A DNA stretch of 35,752 nucleotides, from positions 1 through 35,752 of the forward strand of contig JALOAD010000034.1 of assembly GCA_023228995.1 (NCBI GenBank). The letters run 5' to 3'. The notes beneath the pieces are model-generated. The model made no database searches. It saw nothing but the letters and a program-made list of their open reading frames with translations, and was not told where the DNA came from. Each line of letters begins with the position of its first letter. Position 1 is the stretch's first letter. This DNA is from Candidatus Muiribacterium halophilum. GTDB taxonomy: Bacteria > Muiribacteriota > Muiribacteriia > Muiribacteriales > Muiribacteriaceae. The position numbers and the translations under genes were made by a program. Positions 2,021-22,621 of the stretch are shown here, one piece after another.

Positions 2021-2705
2021 AATAATTTTCACAAATTTGTTCGATATTATTCTCGAACTTCTGAACAACTTCGTTGCTTAGTGACGGAGTTTTTTTGTTT
2101 TTAATATTTCTCTTTATTCTTTTAATAACCATATTCGTTATATGTTTAAGAGATATTGTAATAAGACCCATAGTAGTACTGATAGTTGCGCCTTTTGGAT
2201 TAGTCATTATTTCATCAAAGTTATCAAAACCAATTTGGTATAATTTTATTACATCTAATAAACCAACCAAAAATGGAACAAATAATGCAGTATATGAAAA
2301 CATATCAACGACACCACTAATAGTTCTACCTAATATTTCACCTGTTTTTTCAAATAATTTAGTTAGATTTTTCATAGCATCCATAAAATTATCAACTAAT
2401 GATGATAAACCTCTTTCTTTAACAACATTCTGTAATTTCTCAATATTTTCTCTACTTTCTTTCATCATTATAGTTAAACCACAAATAACTATTAATACTA
2501 CATCTGTATCAGTTATCGTATTCTTTATTTGACTTGTTTTAACTATTGTATCAAAAAATGGGAATAATGCTGTGATTGCAGTTCCAAAAGTTGCAGCGAA
2601 ATATAAGTTAATACCCAATTCGTCTAATACTTTTTTCTGTAATTTACTAAACTTATTAAAAAATAATCCTTCGTTTATTTCATTGTATGTCTTTAATGTT
2701 CTCAT
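1998..2705 (-). CDS. hypothetical protein
   Basis: 235-aa minus-strand ORF with protein-like composition. The overlapping + strand ORF 2074..2532 is low-complexity and hydrophobic, which is typical of an AT-rich shadow frame. Confidence 0.55.
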   Translation of the reverse strand: MRTLKTYNEINEGLFFNKFSKLQKKVLDELGINLYFAATFGTAITALFPFFDTIVKTSQIKNTITDTDVVLIVICGLTIMMKESRENIEKLQNVVKERGLSSLVDNFMDAMKNLTKLFEKTGEILGRTISGVVDMFSYTALFVPFLVGLLDVIKLYQIGFDNFDEIMTNPKGATISTTMGLITISLKHITNMVIKRIKRNIKNKKTPSLSNEVVQKFENNIEQICENYFISSSQI

Positions 2706-2847
2706 TTGATACTCTTATTTTGGTTATTTTTATATATTAAATTTTGTTTTCTAAAAAACTTTACATATTTTTGTGAATACAAAACAAAACGGTATGAAAA
2801 ATAATGAAGAAATTATAAGAATAATTTTTTATTTTCAGGAAACACCG

Positions 2848-2889: not shown

Positions 2890-3747
2890 ATGGCTCGTGC
2901 AAGAAAAATTGAACAAATCTATGATAAGAATGCAATCTTTGGTACTCTCGACAAATTAGCTCTTTCGAGAAAGGACAACAACATTCTTACTCATTTTGAT
3001 GGCAGACTTATTGCCAATACGCTTGTTACTAACAAGTATGAACTTTTCGACTTTCCTACTTTTGCTAAAGATGTTATTGAAGAAGTTGAAAATTATTTCT
3101 CACCTGAAAAATACAATCTACGTATTACAAAAGGCACCCAAGAACTTCGTCTTATTGGTGAAGAAGTTCTAATCAATGGTGACCGTTACTCCAAAATGTT
3201 TAACATTCTCAACTCAACTGATAAGAGCCGTGCTCTTCAATTGAACGTTGGTCTTATCCGTTTCATCTGTACTAACGGTATGGTAGTTGCTGCAGATAAC
3301 GAATATGCTGGTCTTAAAACAAAACACTTTAAGGCAACACTTCCTGAGAAAGTTCAAACTTTCGTTGAAAGTCTTGATACATTCGAGATGAATATCAACA
3401 AACAATCTGAAACACTTGAAAACCTTACTGGTCGTTTCGTTTCTTTCAGAGAATTAGCTGAAAAAATCGCTATGGACGAAGACGGTGTAATTAAAGACAG
3501 TGGCGCATTGAAATTACGTGCTTTCGCTAAGAAACTTCTTTCTTCCGAAACTGATGCCCTTGTGGATCTTCACTCAGAACAAGAAGCGTTGCTTAGAAAT
3601 GCTAATATGTTCTTAAACCCAGAGTTCAAGAATGTTGATATTGAGATGCCTGCTTACAACGCATTAAACTGTTGGATAGAAGTTTATAGAAACTATGATT
3701 CTTCTGTACTTAAAAGAGAAACTAACAGAATTCTCGAATTAGTATAA
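2890..3747 (+). CDS. hypothetical protein (monocistronic unit with its own promoter and terminator)
   Basis: 285-aa track ORF flanked by a TATATTTG element and a strong hairpin terminator. I cannot place it in a family with confidence. Confidence 0.6.
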   Translation: MARARKIEQIYDKNAIFGTLDKLALSRKDNNILTHFDGRLIANTLVTNKYELFDFPTFAKDVIEEVENYFSPEKYNLRITKGTQELRLIGEEVLINGDRYSKMFNILNSTDKSRALQLNVGLIRFICTNGMVVAADNEYAGLKTKHFKATLPEKVQTFVESLDTFEMNINKQSETLENLTGRFVSFRELAEKIAMDEDGVIKDSGALKLRAFAKKLLSSETDALVDLHSEQEALLRNANMFLNPEFKNVDIEMPAYNALNCWIEVYRNYDSSVLKRETNRILELV

Positions 3748-3754
3748 ACTTATT

Positions 3755-3790
3755 GGTGGTCGTATGTTATGCGACCACCTTATTTATTAA
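3755..3790 (+). terminator. Rho-independent terminator
   Basis: GGTGGTCG/CGACCACC 8-bp GC-rich stem (3755-3762/3772-3779) with a 9-nt loop, then TTATTTATT. Confidence 0.65.
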
Positions 3791-3811
3791 CCTTATAAAA
3801 AATACAAAATT

Positions 3812-3979
3812 ATGTTGAATCCTATTGGAATGACTGTATTCTTCTTACTACTTGTTGTGGTATTAGTTTTTTGGATGTATAAGAGTTCTAAAGATGGTAA
3901 AAAAGATTTACTTGACGAACTTTGGAAGAACGAAGAAATCAGTGATGATACGTACAAAAAGTACATGGACAAATTTTAA
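3812..3979 (+). CDS. small membrane protein with SHOCT-like C-terminus (55 aa)
   Basis: ATG at 3812 and TAA at 3977-3979. The N-terminal TM segment is MTVFFLLLVVVLVFWMY. The tail LLDELWKNEEISDDTYKKYMDKF resembles the SHOCT short C-terminal domain. The ORF is below the track's length cutoff. Confidence 0.4.
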   Translation: MLNPIGMTVFFLLLVVVLVFWMYKSSKDGKKDLLDELWKNEEISDDTYKKYMDKF

Positions 3980-4035
3980 ATATTTATTTACAAACAATTT
4001 ATTTACAAACTTTTATTTATTAATTAACAAATTTT

Positions 4036-4390
4036 ATGAATTTTATGAAAAATTTAACTCGTAGTCAAAAAAGACTTTTAAAATTAGGTGGAACTGTATT
4101 AGCAGGTGTAATCTTATTAGTAATTATCCTTTCGACTTGTTTGGTGACAATCGAACCAGGTGAAAAAGGAGTATTATTCTACAAATGGGGCGATGGTCTC
4201 GACAAAGAAACAGTTTATGATGAAGGTGTTCATTTCGTGTCTCCTTGGAACACAATGATTATTTATGATGTTCGTTAAGCACGGAAGAGAATTTGAACAT
4301 TTAGACACAAATGGTTGTGAGTTGGATGTTACTAATGTTGATGATAAACACTTGCCTTTTTATGAGTGGTTTGCAAAGTATTACACATAA
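4036..4390 (+). pseudogene. SPFH/band-7 (HflK/C-, stomatin-like) family gene, N-terminal fragment
   Basis: Track ORF 4036..4278 carries an N-terminal TM helix plus IEPGEKGVLFYKWGDGLDKETVYDEGVHFVSPWNTMIIYDVR, a canonical SPFH domain start. It stops at 4276-4278. A +1 frame continues REFEHLDTNGCELDVTNVDD...FAKYYT to about 4390, still SPFH-like, so the gene is frameshifted and then broken. Confidence 0.6.
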
Positions 4391-4496
4391 CAGACAGCAA
4401 TATGAAACGTGCGGAATTTAGCATTGCCCTTACCACGAAGCACAAAAAAACAAAACAATTTTTAGGGCGGGATTTTAAAACTTAAATTTTATAGAT

Positions 4497-5096
4497 ATGA
4501 CAAACTCAAAATTACATGCGAAACGAGAGCTGGAGTTACTCGAAAAAACAACTCCTGATGCAATAATTACACCATTCAAAAACGAAATACTTGCTTTATG
4601 CGAGGCGTTTGGTAAAAGTGGTCAAAGTGGTGGTTCTGCACCATTTACGGCAACAGCGATATCTCAGGCAGTAAAAAAGCTAATGATGTTTGAAACACTT
4701 GCTCCATTGACTGGTGAAGATAGTGAATGGGAAGATATAAGTGAATACAGTAACGGAGAATCAATATTTCAGAATAATCGTGATAGTCGTGTTTTTAAAA
4801 ATGGTAAAGACGGACAAGCATATTTCATTGAAGCTATTGTTTTTGATGGAGATATTGGTGGAAGATTTACCGGAAACGGAAGTGTAACTCATAATGGAGA
4901 GAATATTAGCAGTAGCCAATATATTAAAGAGTTTCCGTTTATTCCAAAAACATTTTACGTTGATGTGATTGACCACAGATGGGTAGATAAAGAAGAAAAA
5001 ACACCTGATGAAAACGGTGACTGGTGGACGCATTCAATTAAAGACGAAAATCAATTGAATGAAGTATTTGAGTACTATGATAAATTGACTTCTTAA
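4497..5096 (+). CDS. hypothetical protein
   Basis: 199-aa track ORF with no recognised motif. Confidence 0.5.
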   Translation: MTNSKLHAKRELELLEKTTPDAIITPFKNEILALCEAFGKSGQSGGSAPFTATAISQAVKKLMMFETLAPLTGEDSEWEDISEYSNGESIFQNNRDSRVFKNGKDGQAYFIEAIVFDGDIGGRFTGNGSVTHNGENISSSQYIKEFPFIPKTFYVDVIDHRWVDKEEKTPDENGDWWTHSIKDENQLNEVFEYYDKLTS

Positions 5097-5971: not shown

Positions 5972-6043
5972 TAGCATTTACGAATGTTTTAATTAAAAAA
6001 ACAAAAAACAAGATATGAATAAAATATTTAATGACAATGCAAT
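5972..6043. repeat. direct repeat copy 2 (~72 bp)
   Basis: Near-identical to 5218-5290. It includes the start codon of the methyltransferase gene at 6015. Confidence 0.7.
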
Positions 6044-6704
6044 AGCAATTATGGATAGAATGATTGCAAAAGATTACAAAGTGGACTTAGTTGTAACAGA
6101 CCCACCATATCCTACAACATCAAGAGGTTGTGCAGGTAATAGCGGTGGGATGCTACAAAAAGACATTAACAAAAAAGGTAAAGTATTTGAAAACAATGAT
6201 ATTCACGTAAAAGTTTGGGGAGAAAAACTATATCAAATATTAAAAGAAACAGGACATTGTTACATTATGACTAATCATAAAAACTTGCAAGAGTATCTGA
6301 ATGTTTTAACAGACATAGGTTTTCACTTCATAAAAAGTTTAATTTGGGATAAAGGAAATAAAATAATGGGGCAATATTATATGAGCCAATTTGAGTATAT
6401 TTTATTTTTTAGAAAAGGTGCTGGAGTGAAAATAAATAATTGTGGAACTGCTGATATACTTTCAATACCAAATAAAAAAACAAAAGACAATGAAGGTAAA
6501 AATATCCACGATACAGAAAAACCTATTGAGTTAATGAGAATACTTATTGAAAATTCATCAAAAGAAAACGAAATAGTATTTGAACCATTTATGGGTGTAG
6601 GTGCTACTTGTATAGCAAGTTTATTATCAAACAGGCAATACATAGGAGTAGAACTTGATGAAAATTATTTTAAAATTGCAGAAGAACGTATTAAAAAAGC
6701 ATGA
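6015..6704 (+). CDS. DNA methyltransferase, beta-class N4/N6 (PF01555-like)
   Basis: Motif IV VVTDPPY is N-terminal, and motif I EPFMGVGAT...YIGVELDENYF is C-terminal. That order is the beta-class arrangement. Confidence 0.8.
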   Translation: MNKIFNDNAIAIMDRMIAKDYKVDLVVTDPPYPTTSRGCAGNSGGMLQKDINKKGKVFENNDIHVKVWGEKLYQILKETGHCYIMTNHKNLQEYLNVLTDIGFHFIKSLIWDKGNKIMGQYYMSQFEYILFFRKGAGVKINNCGTADILSIPNKKTKDNEGKNIHDTEKPIELMRILIENSSKENEIVFEPFMGVGATCIASLLSNRQYIGVELDENYFKIAEERIKKA

Positions 6705-6770: not shown

Positions 6771-7483
6771 ATGAATTTAATAAATGGAGAAGCAGTAGAA
6801 CAATTAAAATTGATACCCGACAAAAGTGTTGATTTTGTATGTATTGATCCACCTTATGAATTAGATAATCACGGTGGTGGAAAGACTGATTTTGCACAAC
6901 GGAAATTAGTAAAGGACTTGCATATTGATTTTATAAGCAATGGTTTTGAAATGGAAAAAGTATTTACTGAAATTGAAAGAATAAGTAAAACTATGAATAT
7001 GATTTGTTTTTGTTCAAATAAGCAAGTTTCTAAAATTATGAATTATTGGGAACAAAAAAGTATTCAGTTACTTTATTGGTGTGGCAAAAATCAAATCCTG
7101 TACCCTTTGGTAATGGTAAATATATTTCTGATTTAGAATTTATGATTTATGTAAGAGGCAAAAAAGCTATATACAATAATACAGGTTATAAAAATCAACT
7201 TAAAGTATTTAACTATCCAGCACCAAGTTCAAAAACAAGAATACACCCAACTGAAAAACCTATTGAATTATTAAAAAGATTAATTGAAATACATTCAAAT
7301 AAAGGTAGTGTTGTTTTAGATTGTTATGGCGGTAGTTTTTCAACGGGGTTAGCTTGCATAGAATTAGGACGTGAATTTATAGGGATAGAAATTGATGAAG
7401 AAATTTTTAATTCAGCAAAAAAGAGGATGGAAGAAAAAATAAAAGAAAAAGATTTACAAGCAGGAACTCTATTTAACTTGTAA
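6771..7483 (+). pseudogene. DNA methyltransferase, beta-class N4/N6, interrupted by a frameshift in an A6 run (~7054-7059)
   Basis: Track ORFs 6771..7136 (VCIDPPYEL) and 7046..7483 (TLLVWQKSN..., motif I GGSFSTGLACIELGREFIGIEID) are two halves of one gene. Alignment to the 6015 paralog places the shift in the run aacAAAAAAg. Confidence 0.65.
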
Positions 7484-7647: not shown

Positions 7648-7914
7648 ATGAATATATATTTTGGTAATGTAACATTTAACAAGGTTTTAGAAGAAACTGG
7701 ATACAAACTTACAGAAGAAGATAAAAAGCTATGGGATAAATACCATAGTGATAAGGCTGATTTGTCAGAAAAAGAAAGCTGTTTTCATATTTTTAGTATG
7801 CCATTAGAAATACACTTCAAGGGTGATGAAGCAAAAGAAGCCTTATTAAAAATGTTTACCCCTGATAAATGTGTAGAGGCTAAAGGATACTTTAACGTTA
7901 TTAGGAAGGAGTAA
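7648..7914 (+). CDS. hypothetical protein
   Basis: 88-aa track ORF. Confidence 0.5.
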   Translation: MNIYFGNVTFNKVLEETGYKLTEEDKKLWDKYHSDKADLSEKESCFHIFSMPLEIHFKGDEAKEALLKMFTPDKCVEAKGYFNVIRKE

Positions 7915-8136
7915 AGTAGTATTACACACAACAACGGACGAGTGTATGGAAAGTAAGCCATGCACAACTTAAAAACGTTCAGGAATATTTCAGAGGGCTT
8001 ATTGATACAAGTGATATAGATGAATTAGTTGGAGATCCTAATGATGATGAGAGTGGTACAATTGGTGGTTTTACAAAGAAAACAAGAAATTTAGAAGGTG
8101 TTGAAGATAAGATTTCAAATAAAAAATAAACATTTT

Positions 8137-8675
8137 ATGATTGGACACTTACATGGTGATGTCGGTAAAGATATAAAAATATTATCGTTATACCATATCC
8201 AAGAAACGTAGTAAGAGAAGTAACAGGTCAATTTACTGCAGAAGAATTATATTCTACTAAACGTGACCAACTTCAATCTCAATGTGAAGAAATGTTAATG
8301 GAGAAATTCAAGGATAAAAACATCATTCTATTAGATGTACTTATTCGTGACGTAAATCTTCCTAAGAAAATTAAAGATGGTATTGAAGCAAAAGAGTCTC
8401 AGAAACAAAAGAACGAACTTGCTGAAAAAATCAATGCTGAAAAAGAATTCCTTGCTAAAGCAGCTATTACAGAAGCAGAAGGTATCAAACAATCTAATAT
8501 TCTTGTTGCTCAAGGTGAAGCTGAAGCAATTAAGTTGAAACAACAACAACTTAGACAATCACCACAATATATTGAATATATTAAGTGGCAAGGTTACGCT
8601 TCAAGTGGCAAATCACCATACGGAGATAATAACGTATTCGGTGGAAATACTTCAGTAATCAAAGGATTGAAGTAA
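8137..8675 (+). pseudogene. SPFH/band-7 family gene, C-terminal fragment
   Basis: Track ORF 8292..8675 contains ILLDVLIRDVNLPKKIKDGIEAKESQKQ...AEGIKQSNILVAQGEAEAIK, a canonical SPFH C-terminal region. The same frame is open from 8169 (NIIVIPYPRNVVREVTGQFTAEELYSTKRDQL). A further SPFH-like stretch lies in another frame from 8137, so a second frameshift is present. The fragment complements the N-terminal piece at 4036. Confidence 0.6.
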
Positions 8676-9219: not shown

Positions 9220-9861
9220 ATGCCTTATTGTCTTATTAAAAATATCAAAACATCAATTTTTATGAATCACTTTGAAAAAAAATTCGAGCAAAAAACGGGA
9301 TTAAATTTCCAAGTGTTCTACAAAGAACACAAACCAAAACTTACTTGGTATTTGTCTAAATGGACAGGAGACTTAGAAGTAGCAGAAGATTTCGCAGATG
9401 AAGCGTTTATTAAAGCATTAACATCAATAGATGGTTACAATGTTGAAAAAGCACAACCACAAACTTGGCTTTATACTATCGCTATTAACTTCGTTAAAAA
9501 AGATTACCAAGACAAACAAAAAATGCCTTCTATCTCTATGGATAGAGAATTGGCTAATGAAGCAACAATGTCTATGTTTCTTCCTTATGATGACGGCAGA
9601 AAACGTCAAGAGAAAGATGCAGAAGATAAGGCTAAAGCTGAGATTGCACGTGATGCTATTTATAGTATGCCTGACAAACATTATAAGTACCGTAGAGTTC
9701 TTATTCTTAGAGAATTGAAAAATTATTCTTATAATGAGATTGCTGATAAGTTAGAATTAAACCTCTCAACAGTTAAGTCACAGATCAAACAAGGTCGTGC
9801 TTTAATTGCTAAAAAGATTGAGAAGAAAATCGCATATATTGACGAACATGGGTTAAAGTAA
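9220..9861 (+). CDS. RNA polymerase sigma factor, sigma-70/ECF family
   Basis: The region-2-like segment is FADEAFIKALTSIDGY...QTWLYTIAINFVKKDY. The region-4 HTH segment is YRRVLILRELKNYSYNEIADKLELNLSTVKSQIKQGRALI. The true start may be the ATG at 9262 (MNHFEKK...). Confidence 0.75.
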   Translation: MPYCLIKNIKTSIFMNHFEKKFEQKTGLNFQVFYKEHKPKLTWYLSKWTGDLEVAEDFADEAFIKALTSIDGYNVEKAQPQTWLYTIAINFVKKDYQDKQKMPSISMDRELANEATMSMFLPYDDGRKRQEKDAEDKAKAEIARDAIYSMPDKHYKYRRVLILRELKNYSYNEIADKLELNLSTVKSQIKQGRALIAKKIEKKIAYIDEHGLK

Positions 9862-9868
9862 GGCACAA

Positions 9869-9900
9869 AGCCACTCAGAAATGAGTGGCTTTTTTGTTTC
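9869..9900 (+). terminator. Rho-independent terminator
   Basis: AGCCACTCA-gaaa-TGAGTGGCT is a 9-bp stem. It is followed by TTTTTTGTTTC. Confidence 0.75.
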
Positions 9901-9932
9901 AAACAATTATAAAAATAAATTATATAAGACAT

Positions 9933-10094
9933 ATGAAAGGAAAATGGACTTGGGCAAGCGATAAAGAACATATCAATATTAATACAGGTGTTGGTACTAT
10001 AAAATTTACAAAATCAGATTTTGATAAAATTCAATCAGAACTTTTAAAAAAACAACGAGAAAAGAAAATAAAAAGAATACTCAATGAAGAATAA
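9933..10094 (+). CDS. small protein, member of the C-terminal KL[EK]RIL-tail family (tail KKIKRILNEE)
   Basis: ATG at 9933 is in frame with track ORF 9885..10094, whose GTG start lies inside the terminator. The stop overlaps the next gene's ATG. Confidence 0.5.
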   Translation: MKGKWTWASDKEHININTGVGTIKFTKSDFDKIQSELLKKQREKKIKRILNEE

Positions 10095-10866
10095 AATTTA
10101 TAATGAAGATAATATCAAAACTATGGAGAAAATACCTGACAACCATTGTCATGGTATTATCACAACACCACCATATAACTTAGGTCGAAACCCAAACCAC
10201 AGAAGAAAAGATCAAGAAGATTACAACTTATATGCTGATAATGTTGATAACCTAACAGAAGAAGAATATTTAGAGGTTAGAACAACCGAATTTAAGGAGT
10301 TTCAGAGAATAGTTAAAGATGATGGTGTCATACTATATAATATGTCATACTCAAAAGAAAATCCAATGCTACCATTACTTCTTATGAACAAAATACACAA
10401 TGAAACTGACCTCACAGTAGCCGATGTTATCACCTGGAAAAAGAATAAGGCAAATCCATTCCAAACCTCTCCAAATAAACTTACAAGAATATCAGAACTC
10501 ATATATGTAATTGTTAATAAAAAACATTTACATACGTTCAAAGCTAATAAGGAAATATCTAAAATAAACGAAAAAACAAAACAAAAGTTCTATAAGAATT
10601 ATACTAATCTAATTGAAGCAAGAAATAATGATGGTATTAAATCTAAAAACAAAGCCACATTTTCAATAGATTTAGTTGAACAACTAATACACATTTACTT
10701 TCCACCAAAATCAATAATTTATGATCCATTCATGGGTATTGGTACAACTGCTAAAGGTTGATTGTCTAAAGATTGTTATTTTCTTGGTAGTGAATTGATA
10801 AAAGAATTTTATGAAGAATCAAAAACAAATATAAAAGATTATGTCGGACTGTTGCGCAAATCCTAA
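10084..10866 (+). pseudogene. DNA methyltransferase, beta-class N6/N4, with an in-frame TGA at 10759-10761
   Basis: Motif IV is ITTPPYN and motif I is DPFMGIGTTAKG. The TGA follows, and the same frame continues LSKDCYFLGSELIKEFYEE..., which matches the ...YIGVELDENYF region of the 6015 paralog. The stop aligns with Ser/Cys in the paralogs. Either a nonsense mutation or readthrough would explain it. Confidence 0.6.
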
Positions 10867-11059
10867 TATAAAGAAGAAAAAGAAACCAACATATTTAGAA
10901 AGAATTATGTTAAAAATTATAGCAATTTTTATTGTTGTCGGAATACTTATTTTTGCTGGTTTCTTCTGGGTAACATTATTAATTGCTGCCGCACTATTTT
11001 TTATAGTGTTTTTTGGTTATTATTTCATAGGTAAATTAAAGAAAAGAAGAAAACGATGA
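10841..11059 (+). CDS. small two-TM membrane protein with polybasic C-terminus
   Basis: Track ORF. The alternative start is the ATG at 10907 (MLKIIAIF...). The C-terminus is KLKKRRKR. It looks holin-like, but the context does not support that call. Confidence 0.45.
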   Translation: MSDCCANPNIKKKKKPTYLERIMLKIIAIFIVVGILIFAGFFWVTLLIAAALFFIVFFGYYFIGKLKKRRKR

Positions 11060-11427
11060 AAAAGAAATGTAGAGTATTTACAACTTGTTTAGGTTGGTCT
11101 GAAGTAATGTTTATTTTTGATGAAGAAACAAAATTTTCTGAAATAAAGAATAAACCACAAACACATATGTTAACCAGAGATGATTATGTTGGTACATATG
11201 AATTTGATAAGAAATTTATACAATTATTTAATAGATCGAAGATAGGCGATAAATATTACTTCTATCGTTTCAGTTATCATAAAGATGATAAACCACAAGA
11301 AGAACAACAATGGATTAAAATTCCTGAGTTTGTTCCAAAAGAGGAACCTAAACAACAAGAATATACAAGCGTTAAAAAAGAAGAAGGTCAATCAAACGCA
11401 GAAGACTTTCAATCATTATTTGATTAA
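11056..11427 (+). CDS. hypothetical protein
   Basis: 123-aa track ORF. Confidence 0.5.
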   Translation: MKKKCRVFTTCLGWSEVMFIFDEETKFSEIKNKPQTHMLTRDDYVGTYEFDKKFIQLFNRSKIGDKYYFYRFSYHKDDKPQEEQQWIKIPEFVPKEEPKQQEYTSVKKEEGQSNAEDFQSLFD

Positions 11428-11428
11428 T

Positions 11429-11749
11429 ATGTGTAAAGTAGTACATTTCAAGAAAGATGATTATGATGTTTATATAGGTAGGTTACCTGGTGGTGAGTTT
11501 AATAAATGGGCTTATCCTAAAGATTTGAGAGACACATTCCCAGAAGGAACACCAAGACAAGAAATCATAGATGCTTATGAAGATTATTTGTTATCAAATA
11601 AAAAACTCATGCAGGATCTACATGAGTTGAAGTATAAAACATTAGGTTGTTGGTGTAAACCTAAATCTTGTCACGGTGATATTCTTAAAAAATATGTTGA
11701 TAAGTTAGAAAGAATAGATGAAAGAAAAAATCTTGTTAATACAGACTAA
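11429..11749 (+). CDS. DUF4326-family protein
   Basis: ATG at 11429 is in frame with track ORF 11285..11749. GCWCKPKSCHGDIL matches the CWC-x-P-x-x-CHGD signature that I recall for DUF4326. Confidence 0.55.
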   Translation: MCKVVHFKKDDYDVYIGRLPGGEFNKWAYPKDLRDTFPEGTPRQEIIDAYEDYLLSNKKLMQDLHELKYKTLGCWCKPKSCHGDILKKYVDKLERIDERKNLVNTD

Positions 11750-12206
11750 CATTAAACAATTCCTCACCAATAGATGCAATGATTTCATGTCTAGGATAAT
11801 CAAGAGAAACAGTCAAATCCAATAAATCAGAAATAAAGTTATATATATTGTCATCATCTTCTAACGAACCTTCTGAAAAAATACCTTCACTATCTGATAA
11901 ATGTTTCTTTGCAAGTTCCAAAAAATCATTAAATTTTATATCATCACATATTTGATCAAATATCGAATCAGGTATTCCCATATTATCAAAAAGGTTAATG
12001 AAATCATCATAATAATCTTTAGTGAACTTTTCGTCATCACTTAGTTTCACAAATTCACTTTTATCTATCAATTGTTTCCTATAATTTGCATCAAATATAT
12101 TTGGTCTACTTCCAGCCTGTTTCTTATTATTTTCTCTTTTACGTCTTTTTTGTTCTATCCTTTCTTCAGGTGTTAAAAATGACTCAAACGTTTTCAATAT
12201 TTTCAT
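11736..12206 (-). CDS. acidic hypothetical protein
   Basis: Track ORF. N-terminus is MKILKTFESF. Confidence 0.55.
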   Translation of the reverse strand: MKILKTFESFLTPEERIEQKRRKRENNKKQAGSRPNIFDANYRKQLIDKSEFVKLSDDEKFTKDYYDDFINLFDNMGIPDSIFDQICDDIKFNDFLELAKKHLSDSEGIFSEGSLEDDDNIYNFISDLLDLTVSLDYPRHEIIASIGEELFNVSLY

Positions 12207-12207
12207 T

Positions 12208-12462
12208 TTACATTAATTCTTTTATAAATTCCAGAGTATCTTGCCAACCATCGTATAATCCCCAATGTTCTTCTAAACAAGATGTGAGTTTCTTGGCTTT
12301 TTCTTCTTTTGATAATGAACTATCATTAACAATTTCATCATATTGTTCATCAAAGAAATCTTCACCATCATAAAAATCAAAACCAAAATCATACAGGAAA
12401 CTTTTTAGTTTTGATAAAGTTTCATCTATTTCGTAATTTTCATATGTTTGTAAATACTTCAT
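12208..12462 (-). CDS. acidic hypothetical protein
   Basis: Track ORF. N-terminus is MKYLQTYENY. Confidence 0.5.
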   Translation of the reverse strand: MKYLQTYENYEIDETLSKLKSFLYDFGFDFYDGEDFFDEQYDEIVNDSSLSKEEKAKKLTSCLEEHWGLYDGWQDTLEFIKELM

Positions 12463-12640
12463 TATGATGGGTTTTCAAGTCTTTTTCTTCTTTCAGCTCT
12501 CTTATCAGCCATTCTTCAATAGGATCTGTCGTTTTCGCTTCAATTCTATTATCTATAAATGATGTCAATCCTAATCCGCCAATCGTTAAAACTGTAACAA
12601 CACCAACACCAATTAATATTTTTTTAAGTATATCATTCAT
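12440..12640 (-). CDS. small membrane-anchored protein
   Basis: Track ORF. TM segment is ILIGVGVVTVLTIGGLGL. Confidence 0.45.
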   Translation of the reverse strand: MNDILKKILIGVGVVTVLTIGGLGLTSFIDNRIEAKTTDPIEEWLIRELKEEKDLKTHHNEVFTNI

Positions 12641-13455
12641 TACTCTTCTAATCTAATTTCATAGTCTCCTAATCTCGAATTATCACTATATTCATCATTC
12701 CACCAAGTTGATACATACCATCCATCAATGTCTTGTTGTTCGAAACCTTCACCCCAACCATCAGAACATTGTCCTTCAAGATAATCTTTAATTAGTTCTA
12801 TTTCTTCATCAGTAATGTCAGGCTTAACCATAACTTCTACCCAGAATCTACTTTCATCATCAAAATTATTACCAACCATTTGCATTGATGTTGCACCTAC
12901 TTCTTCTGCTTCATCGAAATATTGGATAAGATCTTCTTTATTAAAATCTTCTTGCATTTCATCATAAATAATTTTCATTTCTCTCTTATCTAAAGCATCA
13001 GCAATTTTTTCTTTGATTTGGAAGCTATCTGCGAATTTACCCCAACCACCAGCACTAGCTACATAATCATCAAAAAGATCCTCAAAATCTTTTTCCATAA
13101 ATTCTTCATATTCGTTTGTTCTTTCTTCCCATTCCTGATGTTCTGCTTCAAAATCTTCTTCATTATCGAAATCGTCTATTTCTGGTTCATCTTCATCAAA
13201 ATAAGGTGCTTGTCCGTCTTTCCAATCTTCAAAATCTTGTTCTAACCAATCAGCATCATAACCTTGTCTTGATAATTCCATTTCAATATCTCTAATACTA
13301 CCATACATACTAAAAATACTCTCATCAAGTTCTTTCTGTACATAAGTTGGCACAGATAATTTTATCTTTTTAAGTTCTGTTACTGCTGGTTCTGGAAGAA
13401 GTGATTTTGGTTCTCCACCAACAAATGCTTCATATCTTTTAATCAATTTCATCAT
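12640..13455 (-). CDS. highly acidic, Trp-rich hypothetical protein
   Basis: 271 aa with a very high D/E content. N-terminus is MMKLIKRYEAF. Confidence 0.6.
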   Translation of the reverse strand: MMKLIKRYEAFVGGEPKSLLPEPAVTELKKIKLSVPTYVQKELDESIFSMYGSIRDIEMELSRQGYDADWLEQDFEDWKDGQAPYFDEDEPEIDDFDNEEDFEAEHQEWEERTNEYEEFMEKDFEDLFDDYVASAGGWGKFADSFQIKEKIADALDKREMKIIYDEMQEDFNKEDLIQYFDEAEEVGATSMQMVGNNFDDESRFWVEVMVKPDITDEEIELIKDYLEGQCSDGWGEGFEQQDIDGWYVSTWWNDEYSDNSRLGDYEIRLEE

Positions 13456-13469
13456 ATTTTTATTTTTTT

Positions 13470-13793
13470 TTATAATGTTAATTTATCTTGTAATTCATCA
13501 TTTTCTATTTCACCTTTCAACAAATATGGATCTCCAATCTCTTGAATATAACCTCTACCATCAAAATAATCATCATTAATTTCTTGTAATGTTGATTCGT
13601 CTCTACATTCAATCTCAAAATCAGTAGAATATGTACCAATTGTTGGAGTACTGTAGATACTTATGTTTGGATAATTAGATTGTAGATAATCTATTAATTC
13701 TTCTACTATTTCGTTTAATTCATCCTGACTATATTCAATGTTTTCATAATATCTGTTCCAAGTATTAAATTGTTTCCAGTTTTTTACTTTCAT
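13470..13793 (-). CDS. hypothetical protein
   Basis: 107-aa track ORF. Confidence 0.5.
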   Translation of the reverse strand: MKVKNWKQFNTWNRYYENIEYSQDELNEIVEELIDYLQSNYPNISIYSTPTIGTYSTDFEIECRDESTLQEINDDYFDGRGYIQEIGDPYLLKGEIENDELQDKLTL

Positions 13794-13828
13794 TACATTA
13801 TTATTATTATTTTTGTTGTTTTTATATA

Positions 13829-14866
13829 TTAAATAACTCTAATAAAAAATCCTTGCCTATACATTTTTTCTGCCATCTTCTGGGCAATTTGTTTTACTGC
13901 AGGACTAATATCAAATTGATCTTCTAAATCAAATATTTTCCATACGTTTTTACAAACATATATTGTTAGTATTTCTTCACTTTTTTCATCTGTTGAATAA
14001 ATCAATTCAACATTAAATAATTCACTTTCTACATTAAATTCATCACCTATCTCTTTATCATCAAAACCAACTATTTGCCCATCATAAAATACAGCATGAC
14101 TGTTACCATATCTTTTCACTAACCATTTATCATTTTGTGCATTCTCAAAAGTAGCAAAAGACTCAGTGTACTTAAATTTTGTAATTTTATTTCTATATTG
14201 TGCTTGACTCATACCTTTTGGTGTCTTAATTTTTTTAGGTTTATATCCCATAGCAAGTAACATTTGTCTTTTTTGTTCTGGTGGTAATGTGTGAATTTTC
14301 ATTAATGTTTCTTCATCCCATTGTTCTGATCCAGAATACTTTTTCAATGGTATTAAATCTGTTTGATGTCTATTTTGTCTGCTAAAGTATTTACCTTCTT
14401 CCCATTCACCATTTGGCTCAACAACAACTTCTACTCTCCATTCAGGATCACTAAAATCAATACCATCATATTTATCTATGTATCTTCCATCTAAAGCAGA
14501 CTCATTATTATGAGCATAATCTAATTCTTCTGCTAATATTTCTAAAAAATCCTCAAAATCTTCTTTTGGTGGATGCCACCAAAAAGAAATAATTTTACTA
14601 TCTAACCACAATCTACCAGCATATTTTAATCCCCATCTATCACCAGGACCATTACCTTCCCTATCAATCAAATCACTATGATAATGTAAGTGATGTGTAC
14701 CCACTAACATTTTTTCATGTGAATCTGGATCATCCCAAATACCAAATGCTCTTGCATCTTCATCATCATAATACACCAATGCTCCATCATTTTTACCTAT
14801 GATTTCACCAGGTTTATAAACATATTCAGCATCTTCTCTTAGATATTCGTTAAATCTAATTATCAT
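13829..14866 (-). CDS. hypothetical protein
   Basis: 345 aa. The N-terminus MIIRFNEYL is almost identical to the N-terminus MILRFNEHIL of the neighbouring cyclase. Confidence 0.6.
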   Translation of the reverse strand: MIIRFNEYLREDAEYVYKPGEIIGKNDGALVYYDDEDARAFGIWDDPDSHEKMLVGTHHLHYHSDLIDREGNGPGDRWGLKYAGRLWLDSKIISFWWHPPKEDFEDFLEILAEELDYAHNNESALDGRYIDKYDGIDFSDPEWRVEVVVEPNGEWEEGKYFSRQNRHQTDLIPLKKYSGSEQWDEETLMKIHTLPPEQKRQMLLAMGYKPKKIKTPKGMSQAQYRNKITKFKYTESFATFENAQNDKWLVKRYGNSHAVFYDGQIVGFDDKEIGDEFNVESELFNVELIYSTDEKSEEILTIYVCKNVWKIFDLEDQFDISPAVKQIAQKMAEKMYRQGFFIRVI

Positions 14867-14867: not shown

Positions 14868-15530
14868 TTATAATCTTATTTTATATGCGGTTATTTCATC
14901 AACACCTTTCAATTCTGAAACATTTTTACACATATAGTTATGTACATCTGTTAAAAGTCTTTCGGATCTTTTTCTTTCAGATACTCGACAATCATCCTTA
15001 AAATCAATAGCATCAACTTTATAATCAAGTTCTAAATCATCAACTTTACCATCATAAGCAAATGCTATACCACCAACATCAGATACTTTTGATTCCATTC
15101 TTGATGCAGTATTAACTACATTACCAAAATAGTCCACAATCTCATTACCCTGTCTTATAACAACTCTTTTATATACTTCACCACCACATATACCTATTCT
15201 TAATTCTAATCTCTTAGAACCAACCTTAATATGTGTTTTCTCTAAATCTTTTTGTAATTCTATTGCGAAATCAATAGCAGTTTTAAGTTTATCAAAAGAT
15301 AACATAAAAGCATCACCAATAGATTTCAATATAACTGCATTATATTTTTCTGACAATTTAACAATTTGTTTTTCATGAGTATCTAATGCCTTAAACATTT
15401 CTTCTTCGTATTTATTCCAAAGTTCTGAACTACTTTTAATATCAGTAAATAATATAGTACGTTCTTCTATATCCATACCATATTTCTTTTTCTTCCCTTC
15501 TAATATATGTTCATTAAACCTTAAAATCAT
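14868..15530 (-). CDS. class III nucleotidyl (adenylyl/guanylyl) cyclase catalytic-domain protein
   Basis: ILFTDIKSSSELW (metal-binding Asp), KSIGDAFMLSF (IGDA), RIGICGGEV, and FGNVVNTASRMES correspond to PF00211 signature blocks. Confidence 0.75.
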   Translation of the reverse strand: MILRFNEHILEGKKKKYGMDIEERTILFTDIKSSSELWNKYEEEMFKALDTHEKQIVKLSEKYNAVILKSIGDAFMLSFDKLKTAIDFAIELQKDLEKTHIKVGSKRLELRIGICGGEVYKRVVIRQGNEIVDYFGNVVNTASRMESKVSDVGGIAFAYDGKVDDLELDYKVDAIDFKDDCRVSERKRSERLLTDVHNYMCKNVSELKGVDEITAYKIRL

Positions 15531-15626
15531 TTCAGTTAGATGTTTATTTGATAATATATATTAAAAACAAAAACTATAATTGAAAGTATAAACATGTGTT
15601 ATGTTTTTTTATAAAGTAAAAATACG

Positions 15627-15638: not shown

Positions 15639-16358
15639 ATGAAGAAAAAATTTCAAATATTCGGTAGCACATCATCTGAAGACTATGATGTGATGGTTTT
15701 CGTTGATGAAATTCCCATAACAGAGGAAGCGAAACGACTATGCGAGAAATATAACAAAAAACTTTATATGAGATTTGTTGATACTGGTATGCCAATCAAA
15801 AAATTAAACTGCAACCTTGCCGTATTAAAAGATGGTGTTGTTGTAGAAGTTTTCAAGGGAACAAGTGATGAAGTAAACAACTCTTGTTTCCTCACATATG
15901 ATTTTCATACACAGATTCACCCAAATCAAATCTTGAAAACTGTTGATAGAGATGTTGATATAAAAATTATGCGTTCAGCAAGATTTATGTTAATGTATCT
16001 TTCAAGATCAGAACATAGATTTGATGTAAAAAGAGGTTTGAAATCAAACTTTGTTAAGAAAATTAAAGTTTTAGAAAATATTGACCTAACCAAGACAACT
16101 GACTTAGGAGAGAAAGGTGTTGATTGGGTTGATTATCTGAAAAGTATGAGTTTTCAATTAGGACAAAGTTTAGCATTATTAAATGGGATTGAGTTGTATA
16201 CCAAAGAAGATATATCATCTCACTTTCCATCATTAGAAACAATGCTAAACCGAACAGGTGAAGATTTATTGGCAATCGAAAGTATGAAGGAGGATTTTAT
16301 CAGAGAATGTAAATTACATATGAAAAGTATGAAAACATTCGATGAATATAAAAAATGA
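15639..16358 (+). CDS. hypothetical protein
   Basis: 239-aa track ORF. Confidence 0.55.
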   Translation: MKKKFQIFGSTSSEDYDVMVFVDEIPITEEAKRLCEKYNKKLYMRFVDTGMPIKKLNCNLAVLKDGVVVEVFKGTSDEVNNSCFLTYDFHTQIHPNQILKTVDRDVDIKIMRSARFMLMYLSRSEHRFDVKRGLKSNFVKKIKVLENIDLTKTTDLGEKGVDWVDYLKSMSFQLGQSLALLNGIELYTKEDISSHFPSLETMLNRTGEDLLAIESMKEDFIRECKLHMKSMKTFDEYKK

Positions 16359-16761
16359 TGAAGAAATGAAAAAAGAAAAGCCAAAAATCATTCCAACTCA
16401 CAACGGTTTGGAACGAATTAAGATTTTATCAATCGAAGAAGTATTTAAGTGGATTGAAGAAAACCCAAGAAGAATTTATTGGGAAAGATCCGACTATACA
16501 ATTAATTGTAAAAGAGCAAAAGTCTTTCATAAGAAAGGTTTAGTTTGTGTTAATTGTGGCGTTGAAGGAAAATTCTTTGCACTTGAAAAAGATAGAGGTG
16601 GTGGATTACACCTTGACTTATATGGCTACATAGACGATGAAGAAGTTCTTATTACTATTGACCACATTGTACCTAAATCAAAAGGTGGTGTAAATAAATT
16701 AATAAACTTCCAAACAATGTGTAAGATATGCAACGAAATGAAAGCAGATTCAGACGAATAA
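16342..16761 (+). CDS. HNH endonuclease
   Basis: CVNCGVEGKFF...HLDLYGY...ITIDHIVPKSKGGVNKLINFQTMCKICNEMK fits the HNH beta-beta-alpha-metal pattern C-x2-C...H...DHI-P...N...C-x2-C-N. Confidence 0.8.
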   Translation: MNIKNDEEMKKEKPKIIPTHNGLERIKILSIEEVFKWIEENPRRIYWERSDYTINCKRAKVFHKKGLVCVNCGVEGKFFALEKDRGGGLHLDLYGYIDDEEVLITIDHIVPKSKGGVNKLINFQTMCKICNEMKADSDE

Positions 16762-16772
16762 TTTTTTAGAAC

Positions 16773-16791
16773 TAATTTTGTAGTATATTTG
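16773..16791 (+). promoter_or_regulatory. tandem -7 elements TAATTTTG and TATATTTG
   Basis: Both match TAnnTTTG, upstream of the ATG at 16836. Confidence 0.4.
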
Positions 16792-16835
16792 TAAATAACA
16801 AACAGATAATAATTAAATATCAATTAATCAAAATT

Positions 16836-17312
16836 ATGGAAAAATATAAATTATCAGAATTCGGATTGAATAAGCAGTCATTGAAAAGGAAATTGAAAGA
16901 AATAACACACGATTGTTGGAAACACGGTTTAACATCTATCTTAGATGAAAGAACAACAAAATATTCTTTAGATGACATAGAACATTTAGTCGAAGGTTTT
17001 TATTCTGGAGATGGTCAAATTGAACCAACTAAATCAGAACAACCGTTGAGTAAATATTACGCTGAAAAGAATAAAGAGAAATATGAAAAATTAAAAACTC
17101 TAATTTCTATCAAGAAGAATGGTTCTGCTGACAAAGTAATTGAAAAAGAAATTAGAAAAGTTGTAAGAGATTCACAAAAATCTTTTATAGACTTTGATAC
17201 ATATACAAAAAAATTAGAAACAATTGCTGATAAATTTGGTATTAATCCAACAAAAGTATATGAGATTTCTAACAAAATAGAAACCGAATGGTTAGACGAA
17301 ATAAGTAAATAA
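16836..17312 (+). CDS. hypothetical protein
   Basis: 158-aa track ORF. Confidence 0.5.
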   Translation: MEKYKLSEFGLNKQSLKRKLKEITHDCWKHGLTSILDERTTKYSLDDIEHLVEGFYSGDGQIEPTKSEQPLSKYYAEKNKEKYEKLKTLISIKKNGSADKVIEKEIRKVVRDSQKSFIDFDTYTKKLETIADKFGINPTKVYEISNKIETEWLDEISK

Positions 17313-19545: not shown

Positions 19546-20163
19546 ATGTTAGTAAGAGTAAAAAATAAAGCATATGGTTTATCAAGTAAATTAAGTAAAG
19601 AACCTGCTTACTCTGTTTATAGAGAAGACGAACAACATTACTATGTTCGTAACAATGATGGTATGATCGAAGGTTTTATGAAACAATCTTTTACTAAAAC
19701 TTCAAAAAGAGAAGAAAGAGAATTGAAATTGAAAAGAATTCTTCGTGAATGTGATGCAGTAAAAGAAACAAAAGAATTCTCTGATTATGATATAGATAAC
19801 GCTAAAATTAAAGTAGAATGGTCTGGTTCTTATCCAAACTTGTGTTCAGGTGAATGGACTATAAGAATCAACGAAATGGTTATACCGATACCTGAAGAAA
19901 GAATAGGTGGTTCAATGGGAACGAGTGGTGAATACTCAAGATGGTATTTTGGTGAAAATTACGAAGAACACACAGAACATTATTATGATGGTGATGACTC
20001 TGAATGGTCAAACGATGACAATTGGTTAAAGTATGCTATTTGGTGTTTATCAGAATATCATTCTCTTAGATTTATTGGTGACTTAGACAGACTATATGAT
20101 AGAATTTACAACGAAATATCTGAGAACGATTGGAGAAGTGGTTCTTGTGGAGGTTGTATATAA
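19546..20163 (+). CDS. hypothetical protein
   Basis: 205-aa track ORF. Confidence 0.55.
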   Translation: MLVRVKNKAYGLSSKLSKEPAYSVYREDEQHYYVRNNDGMIEGFMKQSFTKTSKREERELKLKRILRECDAVKETKEFSDYDIDNAKIKVEWSGSYPNLCSGEWTIRINEMVIPIPEERIGGSMGTSGEYSRWYFGENYEEHTEHYYDGDDSEWSNDDNWLKYAIWCLSEYHSLRFIGDLDRLYDRIYNEISENDWRSGSCGGCI

Positions 20164-20177
20164 ACAAAATTAAAAAA

Positions 20178-20963
20178 ATGAAAAAAGTACAATACATATC
20201 AGATTTACATTTGGAAATGTATCCGAATGGTGACTACTGGGCTGAAAATAAAATAGAACCAGTAGCCGATATTCTTGTGCTTGCTGGAGACATCTCAAAA
20301 CTCTCAAAAATACACTATTCTAATCCTTTCTTTGACCAAGTGTCAAAAGACTTTAAGCAAGTGTTTTGGGTGCCAGGAAATCACGAATATTACGATTTAA
20401 CAGACTTAAACTTGTTAAATAAAGAATCATTAGATATTGATATTAGAGACAATGTGAAAATTGTAAATAATAAATCTATCAATTATGATGGTATCAATTT
20501 CATATTCTCAACATTTTGGTCTGAGATACCAATATCTTATGCTCGAAATGTTACAAGAGGTATGATGTGTTTTAGAAAAATCAAATATTTAGGAAATCAT
20601 TTTGAGGCTAAATATATTGATTTCGGAAAATATAATAGACTTCACCAAGATTCTGTTTACTTCTTGAAGAATGCTTTAGCAGATATTGATAATGAAGATC
20701 CTATTGTGGTTGTAACACATCACGCACCAACAATCTATGTCGTTTCTGATGAATTTAAGGCAAGTACAATAAGACACGGGTTCTATTCAGAACAAATGCC
20801 TTTGATTAAAAGTTCACGTTTCATAGATTATTGGATTTATGGACACACTCATAGAAATGTTGATTTTGAGTTAGATGGTACTCAAATAGTTTCTAATCAA
20901 CAAGGATATGTTCATATGGGAGAACATGCTACATTTAATCCTACAAAATATATTGAACTATGA
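20178..20963 (+). CDS. calcineurin-like metallophosphoesterase
   Basis: SDLHLE, AGDI, GNHEYY, THHAP and GHTH motifs are present. ATG at 20178 is in frame with track ORF 20130..20963. Confidence 0.7.
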   Translation: MKKVQYISDLHLEMYPNGDYWAENKIEPVADILVLAGDISKLSKIHYSNPFFDQVSKDFKQVFWVPGNHEYYDLTDLNLLNKESLDIDIRDNVKIVNNKSINYDGINFIFSTFWSEIPISYARNVTRGMMCFRKIKYLGNHFEAKYIDFGKYNRLHQDSVYFLKNALADIDNEDPIVVVTHHAPTIYVVSDEFKASTIRHGFYSEQMPLIKSSRFIDYWIYGHTHRNVDFELDGTQIVSNQQGYVHMGEHATFNPTKYIEL

Positions 20964-22392: not shown

Positions 22393-22621
22393 AAACTTTG
22401 TTGTATTTTTTTAATATATAATAGTGTATGATAAATGATTTTTTGTACGAACATAAGATAATTGCCGAAGACTAATAGAAGTTTATTCTATAAATGTGTT
22501 CGGCTTTTTTTTTGTTAATGAAAACAGTTAAGCAGAAAAGCGGCTCCAATAACCAATCGGTCACCTAGAGTGGGATGCTATCAGTTAAACTCTGGTTTAA
22601 AGTCATTAACAGGAGACAATA

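Follow-up and report, generated by a model that had tools for sequence, protein, structure and literature searches.

The cyclase gene and its operon

This analysis concerns a small nucleotidyl cyclase gene, and the short leader peptide with which its product begins, on contig JALOAD010000034.1, a 35,752-bp stretch of DNA that is filed under a metagenome-assembled genome (MAG) of Candidatus Muirbacterium halophilum. The contig was analysed at its full length, which is called the window below. The gene, which an earlier sequence-only reading had picked out as a phage-encoded class III cyclase, lies on the minus strand and has the following parts (here and below, a slash within a leader marks the bond that a prohead protease would cut):

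14868..15530, minus: cyclase gene with an ATG start, encoding a 220-aa stand-alone class III nucleotidyl (predicted adenylyl) cyclase
15498..15530, minus: leader MILRFNEHILE, codons 1-11, with a predicted protease site I9-L10-E11/G12
14871..15476, minus: cyclase homology domain, residues 19-220, with a terminal LKG..Y hairpin at 207-216
14946..14975, minus: RKRSERLLTD, residues 186-195, a conserved basic motif inside a disordered insert

The gene had been proposed to head a seven-gene minus-strand operon, and the order and spacing of the open reading frames (ORFs) agree: it is the first of seven co-directional ORFs that run from 15530 down to 11736, with intergenic gaps of -23 to +35 nt. The other members are listed here, together with a terminator-like hairpin and an isolated gene elsewhere in the window that carries the same kind of leader:

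13829..14866, minus: operon gene 2, a 345-aa acidic ORFan with leader MIIRFNEYLRE/D, 1 nt from the cyclase gene
13470..13793, minus: operon gene 3, 107 aa, leader-like MKVKNWKQFN, isoelectric point (pI) 4.05
12640..13455, minus: operon gene 4, 271 aa, leader MMKLIKRYEAF, net charge -55 (80 Asp plus Glu vs 25 Lys plus Arg), pI 4.05
12440..12640, minus: operon gene 5, 66 aa, hydrophobic and probably membrane-spanning, the sole operon member without the leader
12208..12462, minus: operon gene 6, 84 aa, leader MKYLQTYENYEIDE/T
11736..12206, minus: operon gene 7, 156 aa, leader MKILKTFESF
11604..11628, minus: terminator-like hairpin and T-run downstream of the operon, a weak candidate (one site vs 1.2 expected by chance)
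1998..2705, minus: isolated leader gene, leader MRTLKTYNEINE/G

Leader-bearing partners of the cyclase are very acidic, with pI values of 4.0-4.9 (12640..13455, 13470..13793, 12208..12462 and 13829..14866), and such proteins may act as DNA mimics or anti-restriction proteins. The 271-aa protein is 38% identical to a 280-aa protein in the cyclase operon of another locus (L001). The 345-aa protein has six homologues only, all of them leader-bearing and with an invariant E11; it has no Pfam, PADLOC or PHROG match, and its structure model is unusable (predicted local distance difference test, pLDDT, of 48). Neither the cyclase nor its operon partners matched any PHROG family.

A stand-alone class III cyclase

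The 220-aa protein matches the cyclase profile PF00211 with 76 bits (E=3.7e-21) in a profile hidden Markov model (HMM) search, well above the gathering cut-off of 21.9 bits, and the same profile is found in 120 of 120 cyclase homologues among the matches listed. The motif blocks lie at residues 28-31 (FTDI), 71-74 (IGDA), 111-119 (RIGICGGEV) and 137-146 (NVVNTASRME). In a family alignment of 30 members (41-79% identity), the invariant residues are D30, K69, R111, D133 and R144, with conservation of at least 90% for D73 and N140; D30 and D73 align with the FTDI and GDGF motifs of the adenylyl cyclase Ma1120. On this alignment the residues make up the complete predicted class III set: D30 and D73 for metal binding, K69 and D133 for specifying the base, R111 for the phosphate, and N140 and R144 for the transition state. 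The catalytic Asp and Arg residues on which the first assignment had leaned are accordingly all in place.

The fold agrees. An AlphaFold2 (AF2) model made from the family alignment is confident (pLDDT 85.2; predicted template modelling score, pTM, 0.81) and superposes on entire solved class III domains over about 210 columns (Foldseek E=1e-12, template modelling (TM) scores up to 0.79-0.83). Disorder in the model falls on residues 1-12 (pLDDT 41 over the leader) and 184-198. Together with the profile match and the intact catalytic set, the model upholds the original claim that this is a class III nucleotidyl cyclase. Because the model covers whole cyclase homology domains, the protein consists of a single catalytic domain and lacks sensor and regulatory domains, and because there is no regulatory domain a homodimer should be constitutively active. 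The structure prediction was of a monomer; a homodimer with head-to-tail active sites is assumed because each chain carries the full residue set.

One conserved element falls outside the catalytic core. The invariant motif (R)KRSxRLLT sits in a C-terminal insert in the window cyclase, and in the cyclases of L039-L058 and L005 it lies directly after the leader, N-terminal of the core. Judged from these alignments it is a positionally mobile motif.

With regard to product, the sequence search places minimal adenylyl cyclases (Ma1120 and trypanosome GRESAG4) nearest among solved proteins, and the family profile matches 59 solved chains, all of them canonical adenylyl or guanylyl cyclases. K69 (in KSIGD, four residues ahead of D73) and D133 (in DYFG) align with the Lys and Asp of Ma1120, whose KDA-to-EGY mutant was crystallised with GTP (entry 5d0g, among the fold matches). 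Pyrimidine cyclases specify their base with F100/R142/Q144 in EaPycC and Y50/D94/R97 in BcPycC (Pycsar literature). Set beside these references, the specificity residues of the window cyclase form a K/D pair as in Ma1120 and differ from those of PycC. The product is most probably 3',5'-cyclic AMP (cAMP) made from ATP, a prediction that we hold with moderate confidence.

The catalytic domains of Ma1120 (Mycobacterium avium, PDB 4wp8), GRESAG4 and Rv1625c are the top matches by sequence and profile and have the same single domain, catalytic residues and fold as the phage cyclase, at about 20-30% identity. Compared with cyclases of the Ma1120 type, the phage proteins add the 11-residue leader and, ahead of the last hairpin, an insert of about 28 residues that holds the RKRSxRLLT motif. 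They also differ in that their family is found in viral contigs only and that their activity is predicted.

A fragment of a huge phage

Several lines of evidence tie the contig to a phage. First, in nucleotide searches of five stretches that made up most of the window against 50,697 phage records, the DNA matched almost solely LR756500-504 and LR745206, uncultured phages of 462-735 kb. The other matches were methylase genes common to Cellulophaga, Flavobacterium, Fusobacterium and Proteus phages, and short segments of the HNH and DenV types. Second, relatives of the cyclase are encoded in 64 IMG/VR viral contigs, including contigs of 313, 483 and 505 kb. Homologues in long contigs adjoin either a T4-type portal and a family B polymerase, or a tail sheath, a tRNA synthetase and an NAD-dependent ligase. 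Third, no close family member was found among 185,579 bacterial and archaeal species-representative genomes (one per species), where the best matches are generic cyclases with 28-35% identity over the core only. The cyclase family appears to be phage-specific because its relatives lie in viral contigs beside phage genes and only generic cyclases turn up in the species genomes. In deposited phage genomes the family is rare, with 2 matches in the 50,697 records.

The window itself has a phage-like layout, with about 60 small co-directional ORFs; a tRNA scan of it found none. The identical protein is deposited at NCBI under the Candidatus Muirbacterium halophilum MAG, on the same 35,752-bp contig. 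In light of the DNA matches and the viral-contig relatives, the contig is a huge-phage fragment that was probably mis-binned in the bacterial MAG, and the claim that the cyclase is phage-encoded holds despite that binning. By DNA similarity, the source phage belongs to a clade of T4-headed huge phages of 460-735 kb, which probably infect Bacteroidota.

A leader peptide found across the lineage

The sequence-only reading had noticed that the cyclase and its 345-aa neighbour have an N-terminus in common. The likeness is real (MILRFNEHILE vs MIIRFNEYLRE), but it is not limited to two genes: the peptide is a leader found throughout the lineage. In the window it is present on 6 of the 7 operon genes and on the isolated gene 1998..2705, and on no plus-strand gene. 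Enrichment was measured with a regular expression applied to N-termini and to internal positions of the same proteins. The window has 7 matches vs 1.4 expected; with the cyclase excluded, the broad leader is enriched 12.5-fold there (p=1.6e-6), and in independent IMG/VR loci it is enriched 7.5-fold (p=8e-32). The cyclase operon of L001, a syntenic relative, includes a run of genes starting MK(F/Y/N)LKTYE(K/G)(F/Y), and the complete 635-kb genome LR745206 has the same leader around its own cyclase copy. Apparent P-loop proteins carry it as well (a 151-aa protein in L005 and a 444-aa protein with weak AAA matches in L058).

Within the cyclase family the conserved leader residues are F5, I9 and E11, the last in at least 90% of the 30-member alignment. 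An [LIVM]-x-E motif occurs within the first 18 residues of 101 of the 108 cyclases that have an N-terminal extension, vs 33% of control windows. Positions 10-12 are where the Glu is most frequent, and this Glu and the I/L two residues ahead of it are conserved in 94% of members. Selection acts on the peptide and not on the DNA, because synonymous codons vary freely among leaders. A few family members do without an N-terminal extension altogether, and because the leader is disordered in the model and missing from these members it is a separable module.

Likeness to the T4 capsid-targeting sequence

In phage T4, a short N-terminal capsid-targeting sequence (CTS) takes proteins into the head. The first 10 residues of internal protein III (IPIII) suffice for capsid targeting, with determinants at residues 4 and 7 (PMC9026906). 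The prohead protease gp21 then cleaves after L/I-X-E, with processing determinants at residues 8 and 10 (PMC9026906, PMC12991175). The internal proteins of T-even phages are diverse anti-defence proteins that have only the CTS in common (PMC3012670). In the T4 record the relevant N-termini are MKTYQEFIAE/A (ipII and ipIII), MKTFKEF... (ipI), MAKINELLRE/S (gp24) and MNEPQLLIE/T (gp21).

The phage cyclase leader has the same aromatic-I/L-Glu spacing as the leader of about 10 residues at the extreme N-terminus of T4 IPI, IPII, IPIII and Alt. With the Glu as position 0, the residues at -6, -3, -2 and 0 are F, H, I and E in the window cyclase, Y, F, I and E in T4, and F, Y, L and E in the 345-aa neighbour; F5 of the window cyclase thereby corresponds to T4 Y4, and its His stands where T4 has Phe. 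Some members of the cyclase family come closer still and match 6-7 of the 10 residues of MKTYQEFIAE; cyclases of a sister subfamily begin MKTFIEFINE/S (L047) and MKSFKEFINE/S (L043). Identity of at least 6 of 10 residues to MKTYQEFIAE is found at 4 of 966 non-redundant phage-locus N-termini and at 1 of 11,341 controls (none of 4,034 10-mers starting at an internal Met, none of 1,104 N-termini from bacteria and 1 of 6,203 internal 10-mers from bacteria). Of the four phage N-termini, two are those of cyclases; the others belong to the gene that opens the L001 cyclase operon and to the one adjoining the L074 cyclase. The broad regular expression also recovers all three T4 internal proteins. By analogy, then, the leader looks like a T4 capsid-targeting sequence that also follows the gp21 cleavage rule.

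As with the T4 internal proteins, the leader is here attached to unrelated proteins clustered in arrays. There are differences from T4, too: the cargo would be a nucleotidyl cyclase, the leader is far commoner (about 10% of genes) and in many cases comes without the cleavage motif, and its partners are acidic where those of T4 are basic. The cyclase itself has a pI of 6.2, near that of the packaged T4 enzyme Alt (6.0).

Head genes near the cyclase in related phages

In related loci the cyclase is found close to genes for T4-type head proteins. When T4 head proteins were searched by tblastn against the first set of loci there were no matches; these arose only with the IMG/VR loci. There, in L010-13, L016 and L023, the genes directly upstream of the cyclase are homologues of gp21 (Peptidase_S77) and gp23 (Gp23), and homologues of the gp20 portal (Portal_T4) lie 3-5 kb from it in 16 further loci. 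Pfam profiles confirm the assignments, with 36.5 bits for Peptidase_S77 (cut-off 27; L011), 125 bits for Gp23 and 191-243 bits for Portal_T4. In the protease of the clade, the catalytic H85 and S140 of gp21 are invariant. The LR745206 protease starts MKPVLIIE/N, which echoes the LIE-9 site of gp21 (MNEPQLLIE).

The portal of L040 is 82% identical to that of LR745206 and 79% identical to that of LR756502, with more distant relatives in the 735-kb phages, Lak phages of Prevotella, and jumbo phages of Tenacibaculum and Flavobacterium; the portal relatives are the same records that match the window DNA. The link of the window phage to a T4-type protease thus runs, on sequence grounds, through these relatives and through DNA-level membership of the clade, and we infer it on that footing. 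In LR745206, genes for the portal, a 707-aa protease-containing protein and the capsid protein follow one another in T4 order. Upstream of the portal, in regions that are otherwise syntenic, L040 (cyclase at 7908..8561, 4 kb from the portal) and its relatives carry the cyclase, and LR745206 has none at that place. Because it lies 4 kb from the portal in L040 and 330 kb from it in LR745206, the cyclase can be regarded as a mobile cassette. Five consecutive leader genes whose leaders end in L/I-x-E are found in L047, an array that looks like the internal-protein locus of T-even phages.

The gp21-type protease domain forms the N-terminal third of a 657-707 aa protein (L011 3795..5768; L156, which is LR745206 186000..210000, 12547..14670), and this protein may be a protease-scaffold fusion. 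The same head region of LR745206 (L156) also encodes a glutamine-synthetase-like protein (3664..4740, minus), an RNase II/R-type exoribonuclease (RNB, 375 bits; 9383..11287, minus) and an NFACT-R protein that would bind RNA (16509..16898, plus).

A candidate phage promoter

An exact 11-mer, TTTAATATATA, is found 6 times in the window; a first-order Markov model predicts 0.30 occurrences, and a count of 6 came up in none of 300 simulations. Its copies are:

15555..15565, minus: TTTAATATATA, promoter-like, 24 nt upstream of the cyclase ATG
13823..13833, minus: TTTAATATATA, 29 nt upstream of the 107-aa gene, a possible internal promoter
2731..2741, minus: TTTAATATATA, 25 nt upstream of the isolated leader gene 1998..2705
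30759..30769, minus; 1125..1135 and 22410..22420, plus: the other exact copies

Each of the four minus-strand start points in the window has the element 24-37 nt upstream. In more distant relatives (L074, L006, L007, L005, L040 and L049) the cyclase units are preceded by a related T(T/A)ATATATA element, sometimes only 4 nt from the ATG. With one mismatch allowed, the 11-mer is not significant (13 vs 8.9 expected in the window). It looks like a phage-specific promoter class and is put forward, from its sequence and placement, as a candidate. The T4 late promoter TATAAATA was considered and rejected (8 vs 9.2 expected, none ahead of minus-strand units), and a sigma-70 promoter scan of the window was uninformative (27 vs 36 expected).

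Other features of the window

Away from the operon the window encodes the following:

4497..5096, plus: Tad3-type Thoeris (Type I) inhibitor, 199 aa (Pfam, E=1e-25, 90 bits), 10 kb from the cyclase operon
6015..6704, 6771..7483 and 10084..10761, plus: N6/N4 DNA methylases, two complete and one fragment, with no restriction partner seen
16342..16761, plus: homing endonuclease, HNH type
29633..30721, minus: homing endonuclease, LAGLIDADG_3 type with a helix-turn-helix
34405..34878, plus: homing endonuclease, GIY-YIG type
28062..28424, plus: T4 DenV-type pyrimidine-dimer glycosylase (Pyr_excise, 56.9 bits), with DNA similarity to a jumbo Erwinia phage's endonuclease V gene
20130..20963 and 30785..31567, plus: two calcineurin-like phosphoesterases, the second weakly like PPP Ser/Thr phosphatases

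The ORF at 7046..7483 matches only residues 76-221 of the methylase profile (its C-terminal part) and overlaps the ORF at 6771..7136, which suggests that methylase 6771..7483 is frameshifted or split. Methylase DNA of the window is common to Fusobacterium, Cellulophaga and Flavobacterium phages. A sigma factor is also encoded in the window. The phosphoesterase at 20130..20963 was considered as a CpdA cAMP phosphodiesterase, and this is unsupported (31.8 bits vs a cut-off of 225 for the best NCBIfam match); a link between the phosphoesterases and the cyclase product would be a weak lead.

Is the cyclase packaged?

Taken together, these observations suggest that the gene encodes a stand-alone, unregulated, probable adenylyl cyclase of a T4-headed huge phage, and that the enzyme is plausibly packaged, trimmed after Glu11 and injected. 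This is our leading interpretation; it is an analogy with T4, and we put it forward tentatively, as having somewhat less than an even chance of being right. The proposed sequence of events would be as follows. A phage-specific promoter, on the other strand from the small genes around it, would drive synthesis of the cyclase, and its leader would dock the protein into the assembling prohead core. A T4-type (S77) prohead protease would cut it after Glu11, leaving a mature enzyme, G12-L220 (predicted start GKKKKYGMDIEER), that would be ejected with the DNA into the next host. There the injected cyclase could raise cAMP at once, such that host physiology is reprogrammed or defence is blunted. The remaining proteins of the operon that bear the leader, most of them very acidic, would be cargo delivered along with it.

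Known systems offer partial parallels. T4 delivers the ADP-ribosyltransferase Alt and the anti-restriction protein IPI* in the way proposed here for the cyclase. The toxins CyaA (Bordetella), EF (anthrax) and ExoY (Pseudomonas) belong to another cyclase class and need a eukaryotic cofactor. The phage enzyme is class III, shows no sign of cofactor dependence and would have a bacterial target, and its likeness to these toxins is functional only. The concept would be the same, that of an invader delivering a nucleotidyl cyclase to derail signalling in its target (PMC9223806). In CBASS, the antiphage systems that signal through cyclic oligonucleotides, protease-switched cGAS/DncV-like nucleotidyltransferases (CD-NTases) also combine, as here, a nucleotide-signal synthase with a disordered segment that bears an I/L-x-E site for a gp21-type protease. 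The CD-NTase differs in being a host enzyme with a different fold whose activation loop is cut by the phage prohead protease, which raises an alarm, whereas in the present case the enzyme processed, in the course of assembly, would belong to the phage itself.

A number of points weigh against packaging, or against parts of the scheme. The case for it is one of analogy. The window cyclase has His at the -3 position where T4 has Phe, a position that is aromatic or aliphatic in 64 of 101 members of the cyclase family. A strict motif combining CTS and cleavage site is not enriched at the N-termini of all genes in these loci (23/845, p=0.19), in a test that is underpowered even in T4 (p=0.11). The broad regular expression also flags T4 gp20, 57B, e, vs.4 and vs.6 and one unannotated ORF. 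Several operon leaders have no clean L/I-x-E, and about 10% of genes in these loci carry the leader, far above the few CTS proteins of T4. Unlike the basic internal proteins of T4, the operon partners are acidic (pI 4.0-4.9). Head genes are missing from the window contig itself, and in the complete genome LR745206 a distance of 330 kb separates the cyclase from the head module. As to product, the clade D uridylate cyclase AnPycC has a Lys (K104) four residues ahead of its metal Asp, and because it too uses Lys, the K/D pair of the window cyclase is suggestive of ATP and not proof.

Many of these points fit a second explanation, which we consider possible if on the whole doubtful: that the same unregulated phage adenylyl cyclase acts only inside the cell that makes it, unpackaged, and that the leader has another job. 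It could be a helix for a chaperone, an AAA+ protease or a sorting factor, an expression or folding tag, or a module spread by recombination. A leader on about a tenth of genes is more than expected for capsid cargo, and its carriers include the P-loop or AAA-like proteins of L005 and L058; a clean L/I-x-E is absent from most leaders and the strict motif shows no enrichment; the acidic partners are unlike T4 internal proteins, and the regular expression picks up T4 proteins that are not packaged. An FtsH-like protease adjoins the cyclase in L006, and the distance of the LR745206 cyclase from head genes also sits well with an intracellular role. A generic helix, however, would have no need of the Glu and I/L that 94% of the cyclases conserve. 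Nor does an unpackaged enzyme readily account for the clustering of near-identity to the T4 CTS on the cyclase and its immediate neighbours, for recurrent insertion beside portal, major capsid protein and protease genes, or for the N-terminal I-x-E that the gp21-type protease of the clade itself has.

A third possibility, which we regard as improbable, bears on the target of the enzyme. Here the cyclase would interfere with host immune signalling, either by flooding the cell with a cyclic nucleotide that competes for the receptor domains of effectors (Pycsar, CBASS or others) or by topping up an inhibitory nucleotide signal in inverse-signalling defences, and its product might not be plain cAMP. 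The Tad3-type Thoeris inhibitor gives the window an accessory, anti-defence look; T-even internal proteins are typically anti-defence (PMC3012670); immunity by inverse signalling exists (PMC12657230); and base-specifying residues are no proof of ATP use. Against this, no direct evidence for such interference was found, K69/D133 and the nearest solved relatives are those of adenylyl cyclases, and the searched literature reports no known defence blocked by cAMP. Since it fits packaged and unpackaged delivery alike, this explanation competes with packaging and injection only over the downstream target.

The sequence-only reading had also raised a Pycsar-like or hitch-hiking defence module. In such a module for abortive infection or superinfection exclusion, the 345-aa protein (in some relatives a patatin phospholipase) would be the effector. 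PycC, the pyrimidine cyclase of the antiphage resistance system Pycsar (with PycTM or PycTIR as effectors), does resemble the phage cyclase in its class III fold, its metal Asp, its small and mostly single-domain build and its link to phage-host conflict. The window cyclase has a weak match to the PADLOC PycC model, and the 345-aa gene follows it at a spacing of 1 nt; in L006, a 348-aa gene with weak similarity to the 345-aa one comes after the cyclase. A patatin-like phospholipase gene (95.8 bits; L020 8641..9600, plus) lies directly after the cyclase and overlaps it, in one viral-contig group only. At 21.5 bits (E=3.2e-5) the PycC match is nonetheless far below the generic PF00211 score, and no PycC chain is among the 59 profile matches to solved structures or the best 50 fold matches. 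The specificity residues differ from those of PycC, and the enzyme is phage- and not host-encoded. No domain that binds cyclic nucleotide monophosphates (cNMP), and no TIR or pore domain, was found in the operon or among the scanned window ORFs of at least 100 aa. The suggestion that the 345-aa neighbour is a cNMP receptor finds no such domain to build on: it has no family matches, its homologues number six and its model cannot be used (pLDDT 48).

A required partner gene is likewise not borne out. Outside one syntenic block, no conserved neighbour of the cyclase was found across 29 non-redundant groups, and the 345-aa family accompanies it in only 2 of the 29. In the closest relatives (78% identity; L074/L075) the cyclase gene is on its own, on the opposite strand to the small genes around it, and it also stands alone in L003 and L007. 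A cyclase without a regulator would moreover be constitutively on and therefore incompatible with a suicide trigger. The Pycsar-like explanation is largely refuted by these results, and we hold it to be very unlikely. An ordinary signalling cyclase of Candidatus Muirbacterium halophilum itself, as the assignment of the protein to the MAG in the NCBI record would have it, is refuted for practical purposes by the huge-phage DNA matches, by the homing endonucleases, orphan methylases, Tad3, DenV and some 60 small ORFans around the gene, and by full-length relatives that lie in viral contigs beside portal, capsid and sheath genes and have no close counterpart in the 185,579 species genomes.

Implications

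Both class III cyclases and capsid-targeted internal proteins are familiar, and their combination is without report in the searched literature, which likewise held no report of a phage-specific class III cyclase family or of a cyclase as capsid cargo. A practical consequence concerns the databases: a public bacterial MAG contains a mis-binned phage fragment.

If the product is cAMP, huge phages would manipulate a host second messenger directly, which would offer a route into the takeover of Bacteroidota-type hosts. To our knowledge, the cAMP biology of Bacteroidota is poorly known. If the enzyme is packaged as we tentatively propose, this would be the first bacterial virus that delivers a second-messenger synthase as a virion protein. 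A broader form of the proposal is that T4-headed huge phages inject a constitutively active adenylyl cyclase and that the leader marks a large, hypervariable arsenal of effectors, mostly ORFans and many of them acidic; this we hold more loosely than packaging of the cyclase itself, as a possibility that is rather less likely to be right than wrong. Should the leader be a capsid-targeting signal, sequence alone would suffice to list the proteins that uncultured huge phages inject, and the function of ORFans such as the very acidic candidate DNA mimics would become experimentally approachable. The T4 CTS principle would then extend to the largest known phage genomes.

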